A DNA stretch of 64,000 bases from Escherichia coli (GTDB lineage Bacteria; Pseudomonadota; Gammaproteobacteria; Enterobacterales; Enterobacteriaceae), in assembly GCF_003018235.1 (NCBI RefSeq), contig NZ_CP027437.1, one strand, 5' to 3'. Positions 1 to 50,050 of the stretch are shown here, one piece after another. Position 1 is the stretch's first letter; each line of letters begins with the position of its first letter. A model generated the notes under the pieces. The model did not search any database. It was given only the letters and a program-made list of their open reading frames with translations, and was not told the origin of the DNA. Both the position numbers and the translations under genes were made by a program.

Positions 1-1
1 T

Positions 2-601
2 ATGCGTAAATTATGTGCAGTTATTTTGTCTGCAGCTGTCTGGCTGGTTGCTGCTGTTGTGCCAGCGGGTGCCGCAGAGTATCAGTCCACACTGAGTGCC
101 GGATATCTTCATGCCCGTTCCGGGATGTCCGGCAGTGATGATTCAGCCGGATTCAATGTGAAATACCGTTATGAATTAACGGACACACTGGGGATGGTGA
201 CGTCATTCAGCTATGCAGGAGACAGGAATTGCCAGCTGACCCGTTACAGCGATACCCGCTGGCATGAGGATTCCGTGCGTAACCGCTGGTTCAGCGTGAT
301 GGCGGGGCCGTCTGTGCGCGTGAATGAATGGTTCAGCGCGTATGCGATGGCGGGTGTTGCTTACAGCCGTGTGTCGACCTTCTCCGGGGATTATCTTCGC
401 GTGACTGACAACAAGGGAAAAACGCACGATGTGCTGACCGGAAGTGATGACGGTCGCCACAGCAACACGTCACCGGCGTGGGGGGCTGGCGTGCAGTTTA
501 ACCCGACCGAATCCGTGGCCATTGATATTGCTTATGAAGGCTCCGGCAGTGGTGACTGGCGCACTGACGGTTTCATTGTGGGTGTCGGTTATAAATTCTG
601 A
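2..601 (+). CDS. lom: Lom/Ail/OmpX-family outer membrane beta-barrel protein (phage lambda Lom homolog)
   Basis: 199 aa, signal peptide, near-identical over long stretches to lambda Lom as I recall it (STLSAGYLHA..., C-terminal FIVGVGYKF). Confidence 0.85.
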   Translation: MRKLCAVILSAAVWLVAAVVPAGAAEYQSTLSAGYLHARSGMSGSDDSAGFNVKYRYELTDTLGMVTSFSYAGDRNCQLTRYSDTRWHEDSVRNRWFSVMAGPSVRVNEWFSAYAMAGVAYSRVSTFSGDYLRVTDNKGKTHDVLTGSDDGRHSNTSPAWGAGVQFNPTESVAIDIAYEGSGSGDWRTDGFIVGVGYKF

Positions 602-628
602 TTAGCCAGGTGACACAGTGTTATGACA

Positions 629-655
629 GCCCGCCGGTTCAGGCGGGCTTTTTTG
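629..655 (+). terminator. Rho-independent terminator after lom
   Basis: GCCCGCC / GGCGGGC stem followed by a TTTTTT run. Confidence 0.7.
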
Positions 656-665
656 TGGGGGGAAT

Positions 666-1859
666 ATGCCAGTACAGATTTCAGGTGTGCTGAAGGATGG
701 TACAGGAAAACCGGTACCGGAGTGCACCATAGAGCTGAAAGCCGTGAGAACCAGTGAGACGGTGGTGGTCACCACGGTGGCGGAGTGTCAGCCGGGGGAA
801 ACAGGCAGTTACAGCATGCAGGTTGAGCCGGGGCGTTATCGTGTGACCCTGTGCGTGGAAGGTCGCCAGCCAGCATATGCCGGAGAGATTGATGTCATGG
901 CAGACGACAAACCGGGTACCCTGAATGCCTTTCTGCTCCGTGAAACGGATGCTGCGTATTACCCTGATGCACTGAAGAAACTGGAAGCGGCGGCGGATGA
1001 GGCTGTGCGCAGGGCGCGGGAAGCTGCTGAGAAAGCGGAAACTGCCGTGGGGCCACAGGGGCCAAAGGGAGATAAAGGCGAGAAGGGGGAGCAGGGGCCA
1101 AAGGGTGATAAGGGAGACACCGGTGCACAGGGGCCGAAGGGAGAAACCGGCGCTAAGGGTGACAAAGGTGATACAGGCCCCGCAGGTCCGAAAGGTGAGC
1201 GGGGCGACCCTGGCGGCCCACAGGGGCCAAAAGGGGATACGGGAGCCGCAGGTCCGGCAGGCCCACAGGGGCCGAAAGGGGATACCGGAGCCACAGGCCC
1301 GGCAGGCCCACAGGGACCAAAAGGAGATACCGGAGCCGCAGGTCCGGCAGGCCCACAGGGACCGAAAGGAGATACAGGAGCCACCGGTCCGGCAGGCCCA
1401 CAGGGACCGAAAGGAGATACGGGGGCCGCAGGCCCGGCAGGCCCACCGGGACCGAAAGGAGATACCGGAGCCACTGGTCCGGCAGGCCCACTGGGACCGA
1501 AAGGGGATACGGGAGCCACCGGTCCGGCAGGTCCGCAGGGGCCGAAAGGCGATACCGGAGCCACCGGTCCGGCAGGTCCGCAGGGTCCGGCGGGAAGTTC
1601 TGACAGCGGGTTGTTTGGCGTCGGTTCTTTTGTTCTTGCAGCGTATTACCCGACGAGTTACTCGGGGGACATGCCACCGGGCACAACTGTTGCCGGGTCA
1701 TCACTGTCTGCATGCTGCCTTTCGAATGGTACTCCCCTGATTGCGTCCGGTAATGTGGGGGAAACCCGTTTACCGGGGACGTGGCGTGCATGTGGTCCGT
1801 TAATATGGACATCTGCTGCGGGTATCAGACAGGCAGGATTATTTCAGCGCATATCATGA
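666..1859 (+). CDS. stf: Phage side tail fiber protein: lambda Stf-like N-terminal domain, central collagen-like Gly-X-Y region, short C-terminal domain
   Basis: N-terminus [17 protein letters not shown]... resembles lambda Stf; long [11 protein letters not shown] Gly-X-Y repeats; GGGGG Shine-Dalgarno before the ATG. Confidence 0.8.
1215..1583 (+). repeat. Tandem 45-bp (15-aa, [11 protein letters not shown][A/T]GPA) collagen-like repeats, 8 full units plus a partial unit, inside the tail fiber gene; the wider Gly-X-Y region spans about 1053..1595
   Basis: Direct reading of in-frame repeat units with synonymous and A/T variation between copies. Confidence 0.85.
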
Positions 1860-1869
1860 GGAGGTCAGG

Positions 1870-2475
1870 GTGGATAAGGGAAAAGAGATTCTTGCAGTAC
1901 GAAATGCCGGTTACAACGAATACGGCGGTATAAACTGTGAGGTGCAGTTTGAAGGCGCGGTGAATGAAAAAGGTGAAGCGTTATGGCTGCCATATACGGC
2001 AACGGAAACGGATAATACTGAACACGGAAAAGCATTATGGTCTGGTCTGACAGCAGGAAAGTACGGAGATGTGACCGCCTTTGCTGCCACGGAAGCTGTT
2101 CTTGAGGCGGCAAAATCGGTGAAAAGGGAGGAGATTAATCTCTGGCGGGACGTGCAGGAAAATATGGAATACGTGATGGAATTCAACGGAAGAAAATGGG
2201 ATTACGGCAAGAAGACATTGTCCAGGATAAGCACGACGCGCCTGATGGCGGAAAAAAACAGTCTTCCGGAAGGATTTGCGTGGACGGATGGTGAAAATAA
2301 TGTGGTGCCGGTGACGGCGGCGGAAGTTATCGCGCTGTCGGATGCGATAGAGAAGGCGATGTTTGCGAAGGGGGTGGAGATTAACACCAGACAGTTGCAG
2401 ATGAAAGCAGAGGTTGAGGCGCTGACAGAGCTGAAGTCCATCAGAAGTTATGTTGTTGGCTGGCCTGCCAGTTGA
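1870..2475 (+). CDS. Prophage protein in the tail fiber assembly (tfa) position, function unassigned; GTG start
   Basis: 201-aa ORF immediately after stf with a GAGGAGG Shine-Dalgarno; lambda gene order; no confident similarity to lambda Tfa from memory. Confidence 0.45.
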   Translation: MDKGKEILAVRNAGYNEYGGINCEVQFEGAVNEKGEALWLPYTATETDNTEHGKALWSGLTAGKYGDVTAFAATEAVLEAAKSVKREEINLWRDVQENMEYVMEFNGRKWDYGKKTLSRISTTRLMAEKNSLPEGFAWTDGENNVVPVTAAEVIALSDAIEKAMFAKGVEINTRQLQMKAEVEALTELKSIRSYVVGWPAS

Positions 2476-3135
2476 ATAAAAAAAGCGGGGCCACCCCCGG
2501 GCCCCGACATAACGAAGTATCAGATGTTTATAATTATTAGCTTACTAACTGTGCCATATCAGAATACTGCAGGAAGTGATGTTGTTATCATTTTTGCAAG
2601 CAGGGCGTTTCTGGAGGGAATCGATTGGTGATGGAGTGTGCAATGATGAAGGGAATAAGCCTCTGCAAAACAAAAAAAGACTTTAACAAAATCAAGCTCG
2701 CTTAGTGGCGCATCTGCCCGTATCCGCACCAGTCGTCCGGAAAATGATTCAAACACCGGGCGGCAAAAGTATTACCAGTGTAGCAACCTGGAATGCGGCG
2801 TATGCTTCTCAACTCTGGCAGCTTTCCATAAATTCACATCGAAACACGCTTCCGGCGTTCACTCTTCAGAAGGTATCCCGTGGCATGAACTGCCAGCTTC
2901 ACACTGGTGAAACAATCAGATGACTTTTCCTTTACCTCAAATTAACAGGCAGAATTGCCGGAGTAACAAAAAAACGATAGATTACGCGCGGGTGCCTTTC
3001 GGCTGATGGTCGGAGGGAATACCCGAAGGCCAGATGTGGAAAGGCCCCGGAAAACACTTTTGTTTAACCGAGGCCCTAACCGTCTACCCTAAGCAAGTGA
3101 TAGGTTAGCGCCTCCCCGAAAAAGGAGCAAGCGCT

Positions 3136-3276
3136 ATGTCGCAAAAATCGCTGATCGCCATCACGCTCTGCGTGACAGCAACCCTCATCATCTGGATATT
3201 GCACGGTTCGCTGTGTGAGATACGGATGAGTTTCTGGGGAGCGGAGTTTGCGGCGTTCTTACAGTGTAAGCAGTAA
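3136..3276 (+). CDS. Hok/Gef-family type I toxin-like small membrane protein (46 aa: MSQKSLIAITLCVTATLIIWILHGSLCEIRMSFWGAEFAAFLQCKQ)
   Basis: Not in the ORF track (under 60 aa). N-terminal transmembrane helix followed by the Hok signature SLCEIR ... E.AAF, closest in my memory to HokA and Hok of plasmid R1; AAAGGAG Shine-Dalgarno 7 nt upstream. Confidence 0.6.
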   Translation: MSQKSLIAITLCVTATLIIWILHGSLCEIRMSFWGAEFAAFLQCKQ

Positions 3277-3417
3277 GGAGACCGCGACGGGGGAGTAATC
3301 CCCCGTCAATCGGTTGTCAGGGTAAGGTCGAAGTGGCACCCAAATTTAAATAGAGGCCCACCAGTAAGAGTAAGAGCGGTGGGCTTAGCACTTGTTTAAA
3401 TTTGAAAGGAATTCTTT

Positions 3418-3714
3418 ATGAGTGAAATGGTATTTTGTCGCGGCTGCGGCAAGGAAATACATAAAAATGCCATATCTTGCCCCAATTGTGGAGCACCTCA
3501 AAGAACAGCAAGTTCAAAAAGCAGGATTACAGCTGCACTACTGGCTTTCTTTTTTGGTGGTCTCGGTGCACACAAATTTTATTTAGGTAAAGTGGGACAA
3601 GGATTTCTTTATCTTATTTTTTGCTGGACATTCATTCCGGCAATCGTGGCTTTTATTGAGTTTATTATCTATCTATGCACCTCAGATGAAGATTTCGCCC
3701 GCAAATATGGCTGA
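3418..3714 (+). CDS. Small membrane protein with an N-terminal zinc ribbon (CxxC-N11-CxxC) and a TM2 domain (GGLGAHKFYLGK motif)
   Basis: 98-aa ORF with AAGGA Shine-Dalgarno; motif reading only. Confidence 0.6.
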   Translation: MSEMVFCRGCGKEIHKNAISCPNCGAPQRTASSKSRITAALLAFFFGGLGAHKFYLGKVGQGFLYLIFCWTFIPAIVAFIEFIIYLCTSDEDFARKYG

Positions 3715-3739
3715 CATCTAGCGGACGAATCAGAATGAC

Positions 3740-3770
3740 AAACCCGCAACCCGCAGCGTAAAAACTGCGG
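3740..3770 (+). terminator. Rho-independent terminator after the TM2-domain gene
   Basis: CCCGCAG / CTGCGGG stem followed by TTTTCTTTT. Confidence 0.7.
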
Positions 3771-3960
3771 GTTTTCTTTTGCTACCCATCACGAATGAGG
3801 GCACCATAAAGAAAGCCCACAGCATAGTGGTTGCGGGCTTTTTACATTCAAAGATGGACGTTTTATGGACATTGAAAGTTTAAATCCTTTAACTTTCAAC
3901 TGGTTGATGCTAATTTTAACGCACCCGAAGGCGCGTTGGCGATACACTCAATATAAAGGA

Positions 3961-4356
<396 letters not shown>

Positions 4357-4523
4357 TCAAAATGTGTGATGGAAATCTCATAATTTTGTCACTTTTTGTC
4401 AACGAATCTTTTTTGTGAGAAATCGCAGGAAGAGGTGTTTTTTTACTTGAGGAATATCTCAAAGCGAGCCATATTTGATGAGATCGATAGTGACTAAATC
4501 GCTTCAGTTTCACAACTAACAGA

Positions 4524-4556
4524 ATAAAAAAACGGCAGCTCAAGGGCTGCCGTTTT
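4524..4556 (-). terminator. Bidirectional hairpin terminator downstream of bamD
   Basis: ACGGCAGC / GCTGCCGT stem flanked by an A-run and a T-run. Confidence 0.6.
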
Positions 4557-4572
4557 GTGTTTCAGGTTTTTG

Positions 4573-5310
4573 TTATGTATTGCTGCTGTTTGCAGCGATG
4601 ATTTTCGCTACTTTTTCAGCTTGCGCATTCATCTGCATCTGACGGTATGCATTTTCCATCAGCGGCAGCGCATCACGCGTCGCCTGGGTATCCGGGTAGT
4701 CGCGCAACATGCCTTCTACGCGGTTAACGACGGCAACCCATGCACCACGTTCTGTATAGTACTCGGCAACGGAGTATTCATATTTCGCCAGACGATCTTT
4801 CAGGAATACCAGACGTTTGGTGGCATCGGTGGTGTACTGACTGTTCGGATAGCCGCGCACCAGTTTGGAAAAGTCACTAAACGCAGCTCGTGCATGTTGA
4901 GGATCGCGATCGCTACGGTCAACGCCAAAGAACCCTTGCAGCGCACTGTCATCGAGCGCCATATTGGTCAGGCCACGCATGTACATGACATAATCGATAT
5001 TCGGATGGGTCGGGTTAAGGCGAATAAAACGATCGATGGCAGCCTGTGCTAACGGCAAATCGGCGTTTTTATAGTAGGCGTAGATGAGATCCAGCTGCAC
5101 CTGCTGCGAATATGGACCAAACGGATAGCGATTATCTAACGCTTCCAGTTGCGTTATTGCCTGTCTCCAGTTACCGTCCTGCAGCTTTTGTTGTGCAGTC
5201 GCGTAAATTTCATTTGGCGGATTATCAGGTACTTCTTCCTTTGACCCCGAGCAACCCGCCAAAAACAGGCTTAGTGTGGCGGCTGCCACCAGATATTTCA
5301 TGCGCGTCAT
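4573..5310 (-). CDS. bamD: Outer membrane protein assembly factor BamD (lipoprotein, TPR-like)
   Basis: 245 aa with lipobox LAGC. Confidence 0.95.
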
Positions 5311-7153: not shown

Positions 7154-7215
7154 CCTAAAGAATCAAGACGATCCGGTACGCGTGATTTTCTTTTCACATT
7201 AATCTGGTCAATAAC

Positions 7216-7243
7216 CTTGAATAATTGAGGGATGACCTCATTT
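7216..7243 (+). promoter_or_regulatory. Sigma32 heat-shock promoter of clpB (-35 CTTGAA, -10 CCTCATTT)
   Basis: Motif match to the sigma32 consensus, about 40 nt upstream of the clpB start. Confidence 0.6.
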
Positions 7244-7282
7244 AATCTCCAGTAGCAACTTTGATCCGTTATGGGAGGAGTT

Positions 7283-9856
7283 ATGCGTCTGGATCGTCTT
7301 ACTAATAAATTCCAGCTTGCTCTTGCCGATGCCCAATCACTTGCACTCGGGCACGACAACCAATTCATCGAACCACTTCATTTAATGAGCGCCCTGCTGA
7401 ATCAGGAAGGGGGTTCGGTTAGTCCTTTATTAACATCCGCTGGCATAAATGCTGGCCAGTTGCGCACAGATATCAATCAGGCATTAAATCGTTTACCGCA
7501 GGTTGAAGGTACTGGTGGTGATGTCCAGCCATCACAGGATCTGGTGCGCGTTCTTAATCTTTGCGACAAGCTGGCGCAAAAACGTGGTGATAACTTTATC
7601 TCGTCAGAACTGTTCGTTCTGGCGGCACTTGAGTCTCGCGGCACGCTGGCCGACATCCTGAAAGCAGCAGGGGCGACCACCGCCAACATTACTCAAGCGA
7701 TTGAACAAATGCGTGGAGGTGAAAGCGTGAACGATCAAGGTGCTGAAGACCAACGTCAGGCTTTGAAAAAATATACCATCGACCTTACCGAACGAGCCGA
7801 ACAGGGCAAACTCGATCCGGTGATTGGTCGTGATGAAGAAATTCGCCGTACCATTCAGGTGCTGCAACGTCGTACTAAAAATAACCCAGTACTGATTGGT
7901 GAACCCGGCGTCGGTAAAACTGCCATCGTTGAAGGTCTGGCGCAGCGTATTATCAACGGCGAAGTGCCGGAAGGGTTGAAAGGCCGCCGCGTACTGGCGC
8001 TGGATATGGGCGCGCTGGTGGCTGGGGCGAAATATCGCGGTGAGTTTGAAGAACGTTTAAAAGGCGTGCTTAACGATCTTGCCAAACAGGAAGGCAACGT
8101 CATCCTGTTTATCGACGAATTACATACCATGGTCGGCGCGGGTAAAGCCGATGGCGCAATGGACGCCGGAAACATGCTGAAACCGGCGCTGGCGCGTGGT
8201 GAATTGCACTGCGTAGGTGCCACGACGCTTGACGAATATCGCCAGTACATCGAAAAAGATGCTGCGCTGGAACGTCGTTTCCAGAAAGTGTTTGTTGCCG
8301 AGCCTTCTGTTGAAGATACCATTGCGATTCTGCGTGGCCTGAAAGAACGTTACGAATTGCACCACCATGTGCAAATTACTGACCCGGCAATTGTTGCAGC
8401 GGCGACGTTGTCTCATCGCTACATTGCTGACCGTCAGCTGCCGGATAAAGCCATCGACCTGATCGATGAAGCAGCATCCAGCATTCGTATGCAGATCGAC
8501 TCAAAACCAGAAGAACTCGACCGACTCGATCGTCGTATCATCCAGCTTAAACTGGAACAACAGGCGTTAATGAAAGAGTCTGATGAAGCCAGTAAAAAAC
8601 GCCTGGATATGCTCAACGAAGAACTGAGCGACAAAGAACGTCAGTACTCCGAGTTAGAAGAAGAGTGGAAAGCAGAGAAAGCATCGCTTTCTGGTACACA
8701 GACCATTAAAGCGGAACTGGAACAGGCGAAAATCGCTATTGAACAGGCTCGCCGTGTGGGTGACCTGGCGCGGATGTCTGAACTGCAATACGGCAAAATC
8801 CCGGAACTGGAAAAGCAACTGGAAGCCGCAACGCAGCTCGAAGGCAAAACTATGCGTCTGTTGCGTAATAAAGTGACCGATGCCGAAATTGCTGAAGTGC
8901 TGGCGCGTTGGACGGGGATTCCGGTTTCTCGCATGATGGAAAGCGAGCGCGAAAAACTGCTGCGTATGGAGCAAGAGCTGCACCATCGCGTTATTGGTCA
9001 GAACGAAGCGGTTGATGCGGTATCTAACGCTATTCGTCGTAGCCGTGCGGGGCTGGCGGATCCAAATCGCCCGATTGGTTCATTCCTGTTCCTCGGCCCA
9101 ACGGGTGTGGGGAAAACTGAGCTTTGTAAGGCGCTGGCGAACTTTATGTTTGATAGCGACGAGGCGATGGTCCGTATCGATATGTCCGAGTTTATGGAGA
9201 AACACTCGGTGTCTCGTCTGGTTGGTGCGCCTCCGGGATATGTCGGTTATGAAGAAGGTGGCTACCTGACCGAAGCGGTGCGTCGTCGTCCGTATTCCGT
9301 CATCCTGCTGGATGAAGTGGAAAAAGCGCATCCGGATGTCTTCAACATTCTGTTGCAGGTACTGGATGATGGGCGTCTGACTGACGGGCAGGGGAGAACG
9401 GTCGACTTCCGTAATACGGTTGTCATTATGACCTCTAACCTCGGTTCCGATTTGATTCAGGAACGCTTCGGTGAACTGGATTATGCGCACATGAAAGAGC
9501 TGGTGCTCGGTGTGGTAAGCCATAACTTCCGTCCGGAATTCATTAACCGTATCGATGAAGTGGTGGTCTTCCATCCGCTGGGTGAACAGCACATTGCGTC
9601 GATTGCGCAGATTCAGTTGAAACGTCTGTACAAACGTCTGGAAGAACGTGGTTATGAAATCCACATTTCTGACGAGGCGCTGAAACTGCTGAGCGAGAAC
9701 GGTTACGATCCGGTCTATGGTGCACGTCCTCTGAAACGTGCTATCCAGCAGCAGATCGAAAACCCGCTGGCACAGCAAATACTGTCTGGTGAATTGGTTC
9801 CGGGTAAAGTTATTCGCCTGGAAGTTAATGAAGACCGGATTGTCGCCGTCCAGTAA
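7283..9856 (+). CDS. clpB: Disaggregase chaperone ClpB (AAA+); internal GTG at 7727 (codon 149) is the known start of the short ClpB isoform
   Basis: 857 aa from the ATG at 7283 (GGGAGGAG Shine-Dalgarno); the ORF track begins 4 codons earlier at 7271; two Walker A motifs. Confidence 0.95.
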
Positions 9857-10297: not shown

Positions 10298-11839
<1,542 letters not shown>

Positions 11840-11924
11840 CCTTAAAGAACTGTGCTTTGCAGTGCTCACACAGATTGTCTGATGAAAAGTGAAAAGCAAG
11901 GCGTCTTGCGAAGCAGACTGATAC

Positions 11925-12000
11925 GTCCCCTTCGTCTAGAGGCCCAGGACACCGCCCTTTCACGGCGGTAACAGGGGTTCGAATCCCCTAGGGGACGCCA
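11925..12000 (+). tRNA. gltW: tRNA-Glu (UUC) in the 16S-23S spacer
   Basis: GTCCCCTTCGTCTAGAGG ... GGGGACGCCA, 76 nt ending in CCA. Confidence 0.95.
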
Positions 12001-12193
12001 CTTGCTGGTTTGTGAGTGAAAGTCACCTGCCTTAATATCTCAAAACTCATCTTCGGGTGACGTTTGAGATATTTGCTCTTTAAAAATCTGGATCAAGCTG
12101 AAAATTGAAACACTGAACAACGAAAGTTGTTCGTGAGTCTCTCAAATTTTCGCAACACGATGATGAATCGAAAGAAACATCTTCGGGTTGTGA

Positions 12194-15097
<2,904 letters not shown>

Positions 15098-15189
15098 ACA
15101 ACGCCGAAGCTGTTTTGGCGGATGAGAGAAGATTTTCAGCCTGATACAGATTAAATCAGAACGCAGAAGCGGTCTGATGAAACAGAATT

Positions 15190-15309
15190 TGCCTGGCGGC
15201 CTTAGCGCGGTGGTCCCACCTGACCCCATGCCGAACTCAGAAGTGAAACGCCGTAGCGCCGATGGTAGTGTGGGGTCTCCCCATGCGAGAGTAGGGAACT
15301 GCCAGGCAT
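15190..15309 (+). rRNA. rrfG: 5S ribosomal RNA
   Basis: TGCCTGGCGGC ... GCCAGGCAT; 120 nt. Confidence 0.97.
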
Positions 15310-32446: not shown

Positions 32447-33402
32447 TGAAGCAACTTTGGTTTGCCATGTCATTAGTGACAGGTAGCCTGTTATTCTCTG
32501 CTAACGCCTCGGCCACTCCCGCGTCCGGGGCGTTATTACAGCAGATGAACCTGGCCAGTCAGTCACTGAATTACGAGCTGTCATTCATCAGCATCAATAA
32601 ACAGGGTGTTGAGTCTCTGCGTTATCGACATGCACGCCTCGATAACCGTCCTCTTGCACAATTGTTGCAAATGGATGGCCCGCGCCGGGAAGTGGTACAG
32701 CGCGGCAATGAAATCAGCTATTTTGAACCGGGACTTGAACCGTTCACGCTTAATGGCGATTACATTGTTGATTCTCTACCATCGCTCATCTATACCGATT
32801 TCAAACGCCTTTCTCCTTACTACGACTTTATCTCCGTCGGGCGCACGCGTATTGCTGATCGTCTTTGCGAAGTCATTCGTGTGGTTGCCCGAGATGGTAC
32901 ACGCTACAGCTACATCGTGTGGATGGACACCGAATCGAAATTACCGATGCGGGTTGATCTCCTTGATCGCGATGGTGAAACGCTGGAACAATTTCGCGTG
33001 ATTGCTTTTAATGTCAATCAGGATATCAGCAGCAGTATGCAGACGCTGGCGAAGGCAAATTTGCCGCCGTTGCTTTCTGTTCCTGTAGGTGAAAAAGCTA
33101 AATTCAGCTGGACGCCAACCTGGTTGCCACAGGGTTTTAGCGAAGTTTCCAGTAGTCGACGTCCGCTACCGACGATGGACAACATGCCTATCGAATCACG
33201 TCTCTATTCCGACGGATTATTCAGCTTCTCGGTAAACGTTAACCGCGCTACGCCATCGAGCACCGATCAGATGTTGCGCACCGGGCGCAGAACCGTCAGT
33301 ACAAGCGTACGTGATAACGCCGAAATCACCATTGTCGGTGAACTGCCGCCGCAAACGGCGAAACGCATTGCCGAGAATATTAAGTTCGGGGCAACGCAAT
33401 GA
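32446..33402 (+). CDS. rseB: SigmaE regulatory protein RseB (periplasmic)
   Basis: 318 aa; TAATG overlap with rseA. Confidence 0.95.
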   Translation: MKQLWFAMSLVTGSLLFSANASATPASGALLQQMNLASQSLNYELSFISINKQGVESLRYRHARLDNRPLAQLLQMDGPRREVVQRGNEISYFEPGLEPFTLNGDYIVDSLPSLIYTDFKRLSPYYDFISVGRTRIADRLCEVIRVVARDGTRYSYIVWMDTESKLPMRVDLLDRDGETLEQFRVIAFNVNQDISSSMQTLAKANLPPLLSVPVGEKAKFSWTPTWLPQGFSEVSSSRRPLPTMDNMPIESRLYSDGLFSFSVNVNRATPSSTDQMLRTGRRTVSTSVRDNAEITIVGELPPQTAKRIAENIKFGATQ

Positions 33403-33878
33403 TCAAAGAGTGGGCTACCGTCGTCTCCTGGGAAAACGGGCAGGCGCTGGTTAGTTGTGATGTTAAAGCCTCATGCAGCAGCTGCGCTTCACGTGCCGGT
33501 TGCGGTAGCCGCGTGTTGAATAAACTTGGCCCGCAAACCACGCATACCATTGTCGTACCCTGTGATGAGCCGTTAGTGCCGGGGCAAAAAGTAGAATTAG
33601 GAATCGCCGAAGGCAGCCTGCTTAGCTCCGCATTACTGGTTTATATGTCGCCGCTGGTGGGATTATTCCTCATCGCTTCACTATTTCAGCTACTCTTTGC
33701 TTCAGATATTGCAGCATTATGCGGTGCGATTCTCGGTGGCGTTGGTGGATTCCTGATTGCACGTGGCTGCTCTCGAAAGTTTGCTGCCCGGGCAGAATGG
33801 CAACCGATCATCTTAAGCGTGGCATTGCCGCCTGGCCTTGTGCGATTTGAAACATCTTCGGAAGACGCGAGCCAGTGA
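33399..33878 (+). CDS. rseC: RseC (SoxR-reducing system / sigmaE regulatory protein)
   Basis: 159 aa; ATGA overlap with rseB. Confidence 0.9.
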   Translation: MIKEWATVVSWENGQALVSCDVKASCSSCASRAGCGSRVLNKLGPQTTHTIVVPCDEPLVPGQKVELGIAEGSLLSSALLVYMSPLVGLFLIASLFQLLFASDIAALCGAILGGVGGFLIARGCSRKFAARAEWQPIILSVALPPGLVRFETSSEDASQ

Positions 33879-34075
33879 TTTCACTGGCTTTGTTGCATTT
33901 TGCATAACAAATGCGAGGACGTTTCCAGATACCACAATCCATACGGTATGAACATTTCCTCGCCTCAATGTTGTAGTGTAGAATGCGGCGTTTCTATTAA
34001 TACAGACGTTAAGCTCAGAACAGCGACTTCTAAAAGCCTGGTTAACCGGGCATTAAGGCACAATAATCATACTTT

Positions 34076-35875
<1,800 letters not shown>

Positions 35876-36915: not shown

Positions 36916-37107
36916 TTATGAGATAAATCTCCCGTGGCTAACGACATCCCCCGTCGTTGTGTATAGAATATTCCCCCGAAGTTTAAGGTTGGCACCTCCA
37001 GGTTGCCACGGCACACGAAACAGCGTTGGTCCCCATATACCGGTAAACTGAAACTGCAGCGAAGCAGTTAGCAGAACCATGTATATCAGGTCTGTTTCGT
37101 GTGCTGA

Positions 37108-38720
<1,613 letters not shown>

Positions 38721-40583: not shown

Positions 40584-40605
40584 AAAAATACCGTTCTCTT
40601 TATAA

Positions 40606-40680
40606 AGTAAAACCCCCGAACTGGTAAGGAACGGGGGTTTTCACTTTACAACTTTAATTTTGTGCAGCACACGATTCCAA
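40606..40680 (-). ncRNA. ohsC: Putative OhsC antisense sRNA (antitoxin of shoB); extent approximate
   Basis: Known K-12 arrangement (divergent from shoB); minus-strand terminator at 40608..40641 and a candidate -10 CATAAT about 40689..40694; boundaries are inferred. Confidence 0.3.
40608..40641. terminator. Bidirectional hairpin terminator (acpS on +; presumed ohsC on -)
   Basis: CCCCCG / CGGGGG stem flanked by an A-run and a T-run. Confidence 0.7.
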
Positions 40681-41004
40681 CAGAAATGATTATGGATCAA
40701 TTTCGTTATCCTGTACAAGCAACTTGCAATCTCTGACATAAAAAACGCGAGCCTTTACGAAGAAATCGACATTGATAAAAAGATTAACGTGACCGCTTTT
40801 TGATAAGTACATTAAAATCGGTTTCGTTATTGGCAATTTTGCTGTGCTTTACACCATGCCACTGAATTCCCCCATTGAAACGAGTGGTGTCGTCAAAGCT
40901 CTGGTGTGGAGTGCAGCACTCGATTCCAATAACTCGCACGTTCAGTTTTGGGGAGATGTAAGGGCTAATCTGAACGGCTGCATTCCTTGTTTAAGGAAAA
41001 ACGA

Positions 41005-49860: not shown

Positions 49861-50050
49861 AGTGGCTCATTCACCGACTTATGTCAGCCCCTTCGGGACG
49901 TGCTACATAAAATTCGAATGACGCACAACAAGGTGCCTGCCGTCCAACTTCTGATATCAGCGTAGCTATATCAACCATCGGGCGAAACGTCGAGTTAGGC
50001 ACCGCCTTATTCCATAACAAAGCCGGGTAATTCCCGGCTTTGTTGTATCT
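49861..50050 (+). ncRNA. glmY: GlmY small RNA (regulator of glmS via GlmZ/RapZ)
   Basis: Starts AGTGGCTCATTCACCGACTTATGTCAGCCCCTTCGGG as recalled for GlmY; ends at the terminator AAAGCCGGGTAATTCCCGGCTTTGTT. Confidence 0.85.

Follow-up and report, generated by a model that had tools for sequence, protein, structure and literature searches.

Right end of a putative mosaic prophage at the raiA terminator of Escherichia coli, between raiA and pheL-pheA

We analysed a stretch of 64 000 nucleotides of Escherichia coli DNA (contig NZ_CP027437.1; hereafter, the window), which begins with phage tail genes and passes, shortly before raiA, into sequence shared with strain K-12. Window positions 1-3917 are, with a probability that we put at about 0.88, the attR-proximal end of a temperate-phage genome of ∼45 kb, which a tyrosine integrase of the P2 family inserted into a 20-bp inverted repeat, the raiA terminator, between raiA and the pheL-pheA promoter. 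The insertion is a genuine yet ordinary site-specific event. The integrase gene (int), attL and the overall architecture of the element were taken from near-identical complete genomes, CP076709.1 and SCU-111, and not from the source genome itself; the closest of these, E. coli O158:H23 CP076709.1, is 99.6% identical across positions 1-4400 of the window.

The element interrupts the raiA terminator

The right boundary of the element is defined by two features.

3918-3937, no strand assigned: attR core AACGCACCCGAAGGCGCGTT, which is the hairpin of the raiA intrinsic terminator; identified by comparing attB (K-12), attL and attR in four genomes, and by the terminator call in K-12.
3961-4302, minus strand: first chromosomal gene, raiA, whose terminator keeps the hairpin and has AAAAUUAGC in place of the U tract.

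A preliminary description of this DNA had proposed a lambdoid prophage inserted next to raiA, and had expected the junction, possibly with an attR core, at 3715-3960. Both were found in this interval: alignments of the window with typical, K-12-like E. coli genomes begin only at 3918, where the attR core begins as well. An insertion relative to K-12 was likewise borne out, as K-12 does not have positions 1-3917 at this place, and nor do 5273 or more of 5425 complete E. coli genomes, where the raiA-pheL interval is unbroken (it is split in ∼152, or ∼2.8%).

Comparison of the three sites resolved the junction further. In K-12, attB reads ...caacaaaa AACGCGCCCGAAGGCGCGTT ggcgatac..., while attR in the window (3918-3937) reads ...gctaatttt AACGCACCCGAAGGCGCGTT ggcgatac... 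and attL, beside pheL in CP076709.1 and SCU-111, reads ...caacaaaa AACGCGCCCGAAGGTGCTTT aatgagg.... Within the attR core, the base at 3923 is phage-derived. Strand exchange is predicted to lie within the 8-bp CCCGAAGG (3924-3931), because phage-specific bases flank CCCGAAGG on both sides; in the variant of the element found in ES5 (CP133871.1), diagnostic bases flank it likewise. Taking four lysogens together with K-12 attB, attP and attB have a common core of 20 bp, of which 17 are identical, including an exact 8-bp CCCGAAGG. The attP core, as reconstructed (AACGCACCCGAAGGTGCTTT), is likewise an inverted repeat able to form a hairpin, and a perfect one in the ES5 variant; the junction expected for attP after excision is ...GCTAATTTTAACGCACCCGAAGGTGCTTTAATGAGG....

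The pheL leader had been reported missing from the window, and indeed six-frame translation of the 64 kb gave no pheL peptide and no match to the Rfam family Phe_leader was obtained there, while K-12 gave 132 bits at the expected place. A search for a repeat of the attR segment, as had been suggested, recovered an imperfect direct repeat of the core, which in CP076709.1 marks the far end of the element and is followed by int and then by pheL-pheA. The two cores are ∼45.3 kb apart by coordinate arithmetic in that genome, and pheL-pheA is intact on the far side of the element, ∼45.3 kb off and outside the window; the left end of the element also lies outside the window, as had been stated. The pheL-pheA operon thus appears to have been displaced by ∼45 kb, not lost. 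At attL, the −35 and −10 hexamers of its promoter and the leader are unchanged; in K-12, the raiA terminator leads directly into the TTGACA of this promoter.

The integrase and its arm sites are of the P2 type

In CP076709.1 and SCU-111, the gene order of the element is int-C-cox...gpA...Q...lysis...head/tail...J-lom-stf-tfa-ogr′-hok-TM2, where ogr′ denotes a truncated ogr. Each element has one int and one att pair, and int adjoins pheL in both genomes. Locating the integrase, which the preliminary description had recommended, led in CP076709.1 to a gene next to pheL whose product belongs to the P2 family. Over 98% of its length, this Int shares 56% identity with that of P2, and it has the Pfam domains Phage_integrase (PF00589) and Int_N (PF24624); the closest integrases among isolated phages are those of the E. 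coli myovirus (vB_EcoM) group, at 72% identity. Beside int in CP076709.1 are genes for a helix-turn-helix protein, the putative repressor C, and for a Cox-family protein of likewise putative function (PF10743 Phage_Cox), and further inward for a gpA-type replication endonuclease (PHROG 91, E = 4e-173).

The P arm, which is contained in the window, bears a matching signature.

3854-3870, plus strand: P-arm pair of putative arm-type Int-binding repeats, ATGGAC-N5-ATGGAC, with 11-bp spacing; the sole match in the 64 kb window, where 0 are expected.

Specifically, the P arm has GATGGAC and TATGGAC at 3853-3870, and the P′ arm has TATGGAC twice at the 3′ end of int. The motif ATGGAC-N5-ATGGAC was present in both arms of these prophages and at the 3′ end of int in every P2-family locus that we fetched, P2 included. 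The repeats fit the consensus tgTGGaCa described for P2-type arm sites (PMC3448106), and P2-type integrases typically target intergenic sites (PMC3448106).

By analogy with P2, Int would bind both half-sites of the hairpin sequence in attB and in the look-alike attP core AACGCACCCGAAGGTGCTTT, together with the paired arm-type repeats on either side of attP, and would exchange strands within the common CCCGAAGG; Cox would direct excision. The P2 module (ogr-attP-int-C-cox) resembles that of the window element in the transcription of C and int toward attP with ogr across attP, in its homologous Int and intergenic target, and in the paired arm-type repeats at 11-bp spacing, one pair of which overlaps the 3′ end of int. 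In contrast, the core of the window element is the raiA terminator hairpin and that of P2 is locI. The window element also differs from P2 in its truncated ogr, in the hok/sok locus and TM2 gene placed between ogr and attP, and in its late and morphogenesis genes (Q, lysis, head and tail), which, as annotated, are wholly lambdoid.

Site usage, relatives and mobility

Integrases of the window-type lineage (≥ 95% DNA identity) were found in five complete genomes, in all of which int lies beside pheL. The same holds for two further assemblies, both drafts; their integrase, 98% identical to the query, belongs to one 90%-identity cluster with it. The right end present in the window was found in just two complete genomes. 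A second lineage at the site is much more frequent: as scored by its attR junction, a P2-like prophage of the STEC313 type (CP041433.1; L015 8860-9100, L016 12940-14160) is inserted at raiA in 125 of 5426 complete E. coli genomes. Both types use the same attB hairpin in the same orientation, with int next to pheL, carry a hok gene near attR and encode a P2-family integrase of the same length (329 aa). However, the integrases of the two types have just 58% identity, and the STEC313-type prophage is a complete P2-type myovirus with an intact ogr. Integrases of the P2 family have thus repeatedly used the raiA terminator for attachment, in two lineages with 58% identity to each other; we did not find this terminator named as an att site in the literature available as open-access full text.

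Other candidates for use of the same site were rejected. Salmonella integrases with 82% identity to the window-type Int are located near a TehB-like gene and minCDE, and relatives of the vB_EcoM integrases, with ∼76% DNA identity in the 5′ part of int, adjoin dmsA. Phage Chuche, considered as a known phage for the raiA site, showed no raiA-type core when its attP interval was read. Chuche and the STEC313-type prophage share ogr-hok-com-methylase DNA.

The ES5 element has its integration and early module in common with the window type, but its head/tail block is another one, HK97-like. The ogr-hok-TM2 segment is absent from this element and an IS200C is found ∼180 bp from the attR core (L004 130-800).

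Within the prophage part of the window, there are 16 mismatches to CP076709.1, all of them in a 45-bp repeat array that encodes collagen-like units (1215-1589); the remaining ∼3.5 kb of prophage DNA has none. The flanking chromosome, in contrast, differs at 56 of 6283 bases (0.9%). Because the prophage is identical outside the array while the flanks differ by 0.9%, the same phage sits in different chromosomal backgrounds, which points to recent mobility. The 16 differences fall at 1271-1385 and are spaced in multiples of three, as expected from the exchange of repeat units.

Several observations weigh against the assignment of positions 1-3917 to a P2-type temperate phage genome, or at least against its viability. 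The left end, int and attL lie beyond the window, and we infer them from near-identical complete genomes. Equally, we infer Int binding, the exchange point and the effect on raiA and RaiZ from the sequence. The strict consensus for integration host factor (IHF), WATCAANNNNTTR, has no exact match in the P arm (3700-3960); a near match picked out by eye, 12 of 13 positions at 3897-3909 on the minus strand, is not significant. The annotation of CP076709.1 marks J as 'incomplete', RecE as partial and two genes as frameshifted, so that the element could be defective. Finally, a collection of 50 697 phage records contained no isolated phage with this early region.

The last two points are also what would be expected if the element were a dead composite, that is, a degraded P2/P88-like prophage at the raiA terminator that recombined with, or was invaded by, a lambdoid prophage, and that is now immobile and spreads only with the chromosome. 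The truncation of ogr and the IS200 and IS66 insertions in ES5 agree with such an origin. Nevertheless, we consider it unlikely. The element has a single int and a single att pair, with arm sites intact at both ends, and its prophage end is identical in a chromosome whose flanks have diverged by 0.9%. Moreover, the early module of ES5 stands on a different head/tail module, as expected of a living lineage that exchanges its parts, and loss of ogr is itself to be expected if Q drives the late genes. As to the annotated defects of CP076709.1 (L001 16619-19609 and 11190-11468; L003 16784-18238), the 2991-bp 'incomplete' J call recurs in SCU-111 and ES5, and may reflect an annotation habit, not a defect.

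A P2/P88-like block is joined to a lambdoid late block

The window contains one of the joins between the two kinds of phage DNA.

2611-2699, no strand assigned: module junction; lambdoid prophages cease to match at ∼2605-2611, and P88-like Peduoviridae begin to match at 2699.

To the right of this junction, 2699-3917 is P88/P2-like DNA, comprising the truncated ogr, hok/sok, the gene for a TM2-domain protein and the P arm; the ogr-hok region (2699-3341) is 93-95% identical to P88, Chuche and 500465-2. When the ends of the element are joined, the P2/P88-like segment spans attP and runs from ogr′, hok/sok and TM2 through attP to int, C, cox and on to the gpA endonuclease. Next to gpA in CP076709.1 and SCU-111 come a lambdoid Q and then a tRNA and lysis region like that of Stx phages, without stx. 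Outside the window in CP076709.1, genes for Q, holin, lysozyme, Rz1, terminase, portal and lambda-type tail proteins are identified by annotation only. Capsid is also among these lambda-like late genes, and the block ends in J-lom-stf-tfa. The element is thus a mosaic of a P2/P88-like block across attP and a lambdoid late block, and the right-hand mosaic join lies at 2611-2699. This join removed the 5′ end of ogr; with the late genes probably under Q, a late activator of the P2 type would presumably be dispensable.

The term 'lambdoid', which the preliminary description had used for the whole, therefore needs to be restricted: it fits the tail genes, but neither the integration machinery nor the DNA that abuts raiA. 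It stands for lom, stf and the head, tail, Q and lysis genes, and fails for the integrase, repressor, Cox, replication module and the last 1.2 kb, which are P2/P88-like. Of its other claims, the occurrence of lom, an Stf-like fibre and a gene at the tfa position in lambda order is confirmed by gene order and family matches. The tail genes, however, do not end a few hundred bp from the raiA stop codon but ∼1.5 kb away, with the truncated ogr, hok/sok and the TM2 gene in between; it is the last prophage gene that ends 247 bp from raiA.

A conventional lambdoid prophage, with lambda-type Int and Xis, a lambda-style b region and an attB downstream of raiA that had gone unnoticed, would account for the lom-stf-tfa order, for the lambda-like Lom and Stf N-terminus, and for the lambda-like head, tail, Q and lysis genes upstream in CP076709.1. 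Yet we regard it as highly improbable. In the near-identical full prophages, the sole integrase is of the P2 family, with C and Cox beside it and a gpA-type endonuclease, where lambda-type Int, Xis and attP would be expected. Furthermore, the 1.2 kb beside attR is P88-like and not a lambda b region, and the arm repeats are of the P2 type. The right arm of lambda (J-lom-stf-tfa-b region-attP) has the same gene order and homologous Lom and Stf N-terminus, whereas the window element lacks a b region, has a collagen-like fibre shaft and a DUF4376 gene at the tfa position, and uses an attP and Int that are not those of lambda. The element is no complete member of the Peduoviridae either, as neither a working Ogr/Delta nor P2-type genes for capsid and contractile tail were found; the structural genes are lambdoid. 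In this it differs from the P88-like phages (Xuanwuvirus: P88, Chuche and 500465-2), which have an intact ogr and P2-type structural genes, and from Chuche also in Int, the two integrases being 51% identical. An origin of the tail-fibre genes from an unrelated genomic island or from an assembly artefact, which might be entertained with just 3.9 kb of the element in view, hardly deserves consideration, given that the same junction occurs in two independent complete assemblies and that a contiguous 45-kb set of phage genes is bounded by att repeats.

All parts of the mosaic prophage are of known kinds: P2-type site-specific recombination, a lambdoid late block, hok/sok and lom as morons, and mosaic joins between modules. 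Mosaic temperate phages and intergenic att sites of the P2 type are already well known, and this prophage is already present in RefSeq genomes, annotated gene by gene. Among isolated phages, no record in the phage collection covered either the early region or the right end as a whole. In practical terms, prophage typing by tail genes alone would mislabel an element in which a lambdoid-looking tail is carried on a P2-type integration and replication backbone.

Predicted consequences for the raiA and RaiZ transcripts

Only one feature has a wider biological bearing: raiA and RaiZ share, as their 3′ terminator, the sequence that serves as attB. The scan calls a terminator in K-12, where the hairpin AACGCGCCTTCGGGCGCGTT and then TTTTTTG come after the raiA stop codon. 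In the window, the raiA site is no longer called: the hairpin still folds, with one G.U pair, but at attR the U tract is replaced by AAAAUUAGC, so that a hairpin followed by a U tract is no longer present. ES5-type lysogens likewise lack the raiA U tract. STEC313-type prophages, in contrast, rebuild a U tract at attR (GCGCGTTTTTTG), which the window type does not.

The raiA and RaiZ transcripts should therefore end differently in window-type lysogens and read on into the P arm. Such read-through would run to weaker hairpins at ∼3841-3812 and 3756-3744 on the minus strand. Salmonella RaiZ consists of the last third of raiA, its 3′ UTR and the terminator, and is a ProQ-dependent small RNA (sRNA), whose two 3′-terminal stem-loops are protected by ProQ (PMC5391140). 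Because of this protection, an altered RaiZ 3′ end could matter, and the unrestored U tract offers a simple natural test of how the terminator tail affects a ProQ-dependent sRNA. A more far-reaching proposal is that the element represents a living chimeric lineage, in which a lambda-type siphovirus under Q control is driven by P2-type functions for lysogeny, excision and rolling-circle replication, and that RaiZ, once the U tract is lost, is measurably altered in its 3′ end, stability or ProQ binding, possibly with read-through from int into pheL-pheA; we hold this to be doubtful.

Genes at the right end of the element

Six features, apart from the att region, were recognized in the prophage part of the window, together with a hairpin that closes the last gene.

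2-601, plus strand: lom, outer-membrane beta-barrel of the Ail/Lom family, a lambdoid moron 3′ of J (PHROG 108, E = 4e-101; 44% identical to lambda Lom; RefSeq annotation of CP076709.1).
666-1859, plus strand: Stf-like side tail fibre with a lambda-type N-terminal domain, collagen-like repeats and a short C-terminal domain (PF08400, E = 2e-41, and four Collagen matches).
1870-2475, plus strand: gene at the tfa position, with a DUF4376 domain (PF14301, E = 1e-14; PHROG 1141, 'tail fiber protein').
2698-2910, plus strand: 5′-truncated remnant of an ogr/Delta-type late activator gene (alignment with the intact ogr of Chuche and P88; weak matches to PHROG 603 and NF007241).
2990-3276, plus strand: hok/sok-type type I toxin-antitoxin locus (leader/sok region, 2990-3149; hok open reading frame, 3136-3276).
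3418-3714, plus strand: small membrane protein with a zinc ribbon and a TM2 domain, encoded by a cargo gene (PF05154, E = 4e-19; PF13240, E = 1e-4).
3748-3773, plus strand: terminator-like hairpin closing the TM2 gene (consensus scan).

In CP076709.1, lom is directly preceded by J, and the order J-lom-stf-tfa is that of the lambda record with which it was compared. Residues 1-117 of the Stf-like fibre are 55% identical to lambda Stf; the array of 45-bp tandem repeats within this gene (8.3 copies, 1215-1589) encodes its collagen-like units, which end in (A/T)GPA. Between the protein at the tfa position and lambda Tfa there is no significant similarity (BLASTP, E = 0.02), only the position being conserved.

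Unrelated DNA replaces the promoter and start codon of the ogr remnant, as well as its first four codons. The second Cys of its first Cys pair is replaced by Ser, and the first CxxC motif is lost. The cut in ogr coincides exactly with the boundary between P88-like and lambdoid DNA; a coding sequence is nonetheless annotated there in RefSeq, beginning at a non-ATG codon.

The hok open reading frame matches PHROG 251, 'MokW-like host killing' (E = 7e-21), and is annotated as a Hok/Gef protein in RefSeq; an NCBIfam match to HokA is below the cut-off. For sok, Rfam RF01794 scores 45.7 bits (E = 4e-8), which is under the gathering score of 59. Thus, the Hok peptide supports the assignment as hok/sok, and the Rfam match for sok, sub-threshold but non-random, adds to this support. 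Other Rfam matches at E ≤ 1 in positions 1-5000 (ncr1175, mir-1788, Trp_leader and others) were taken as chance, as they are far below the gathering scores and lie on terminator hairpins.

None of the six proteins of the window's prophage part, the TM2 protein included, matched a defence system in PADLOC. The region of the TM2 gene recurs at 90% identity on a plasmid record, CP183151.1 (H60, 129 kb; 32722-33210), and because of this match the cargo gene probably also travels on plasmids or phage-plasmids.

The chromosomal part of the window

Beyond raiA, the window continues as in K-12 with bamD, rluD, yfiH and clpB, and then with an rrn operon. In this remaining part, the RNA features above Rfam gathering scores are K-12-like, as expected, and comprise RyfD upstream of clpB, the rrn operon with tRNA-Glu, AsrC, rncO, ohsC and GlmY, with coordinates, in this order, of 7164-7302, 10298-15307, 33363-34194, 36978-37192, 40604-40681 and 49861-50008.

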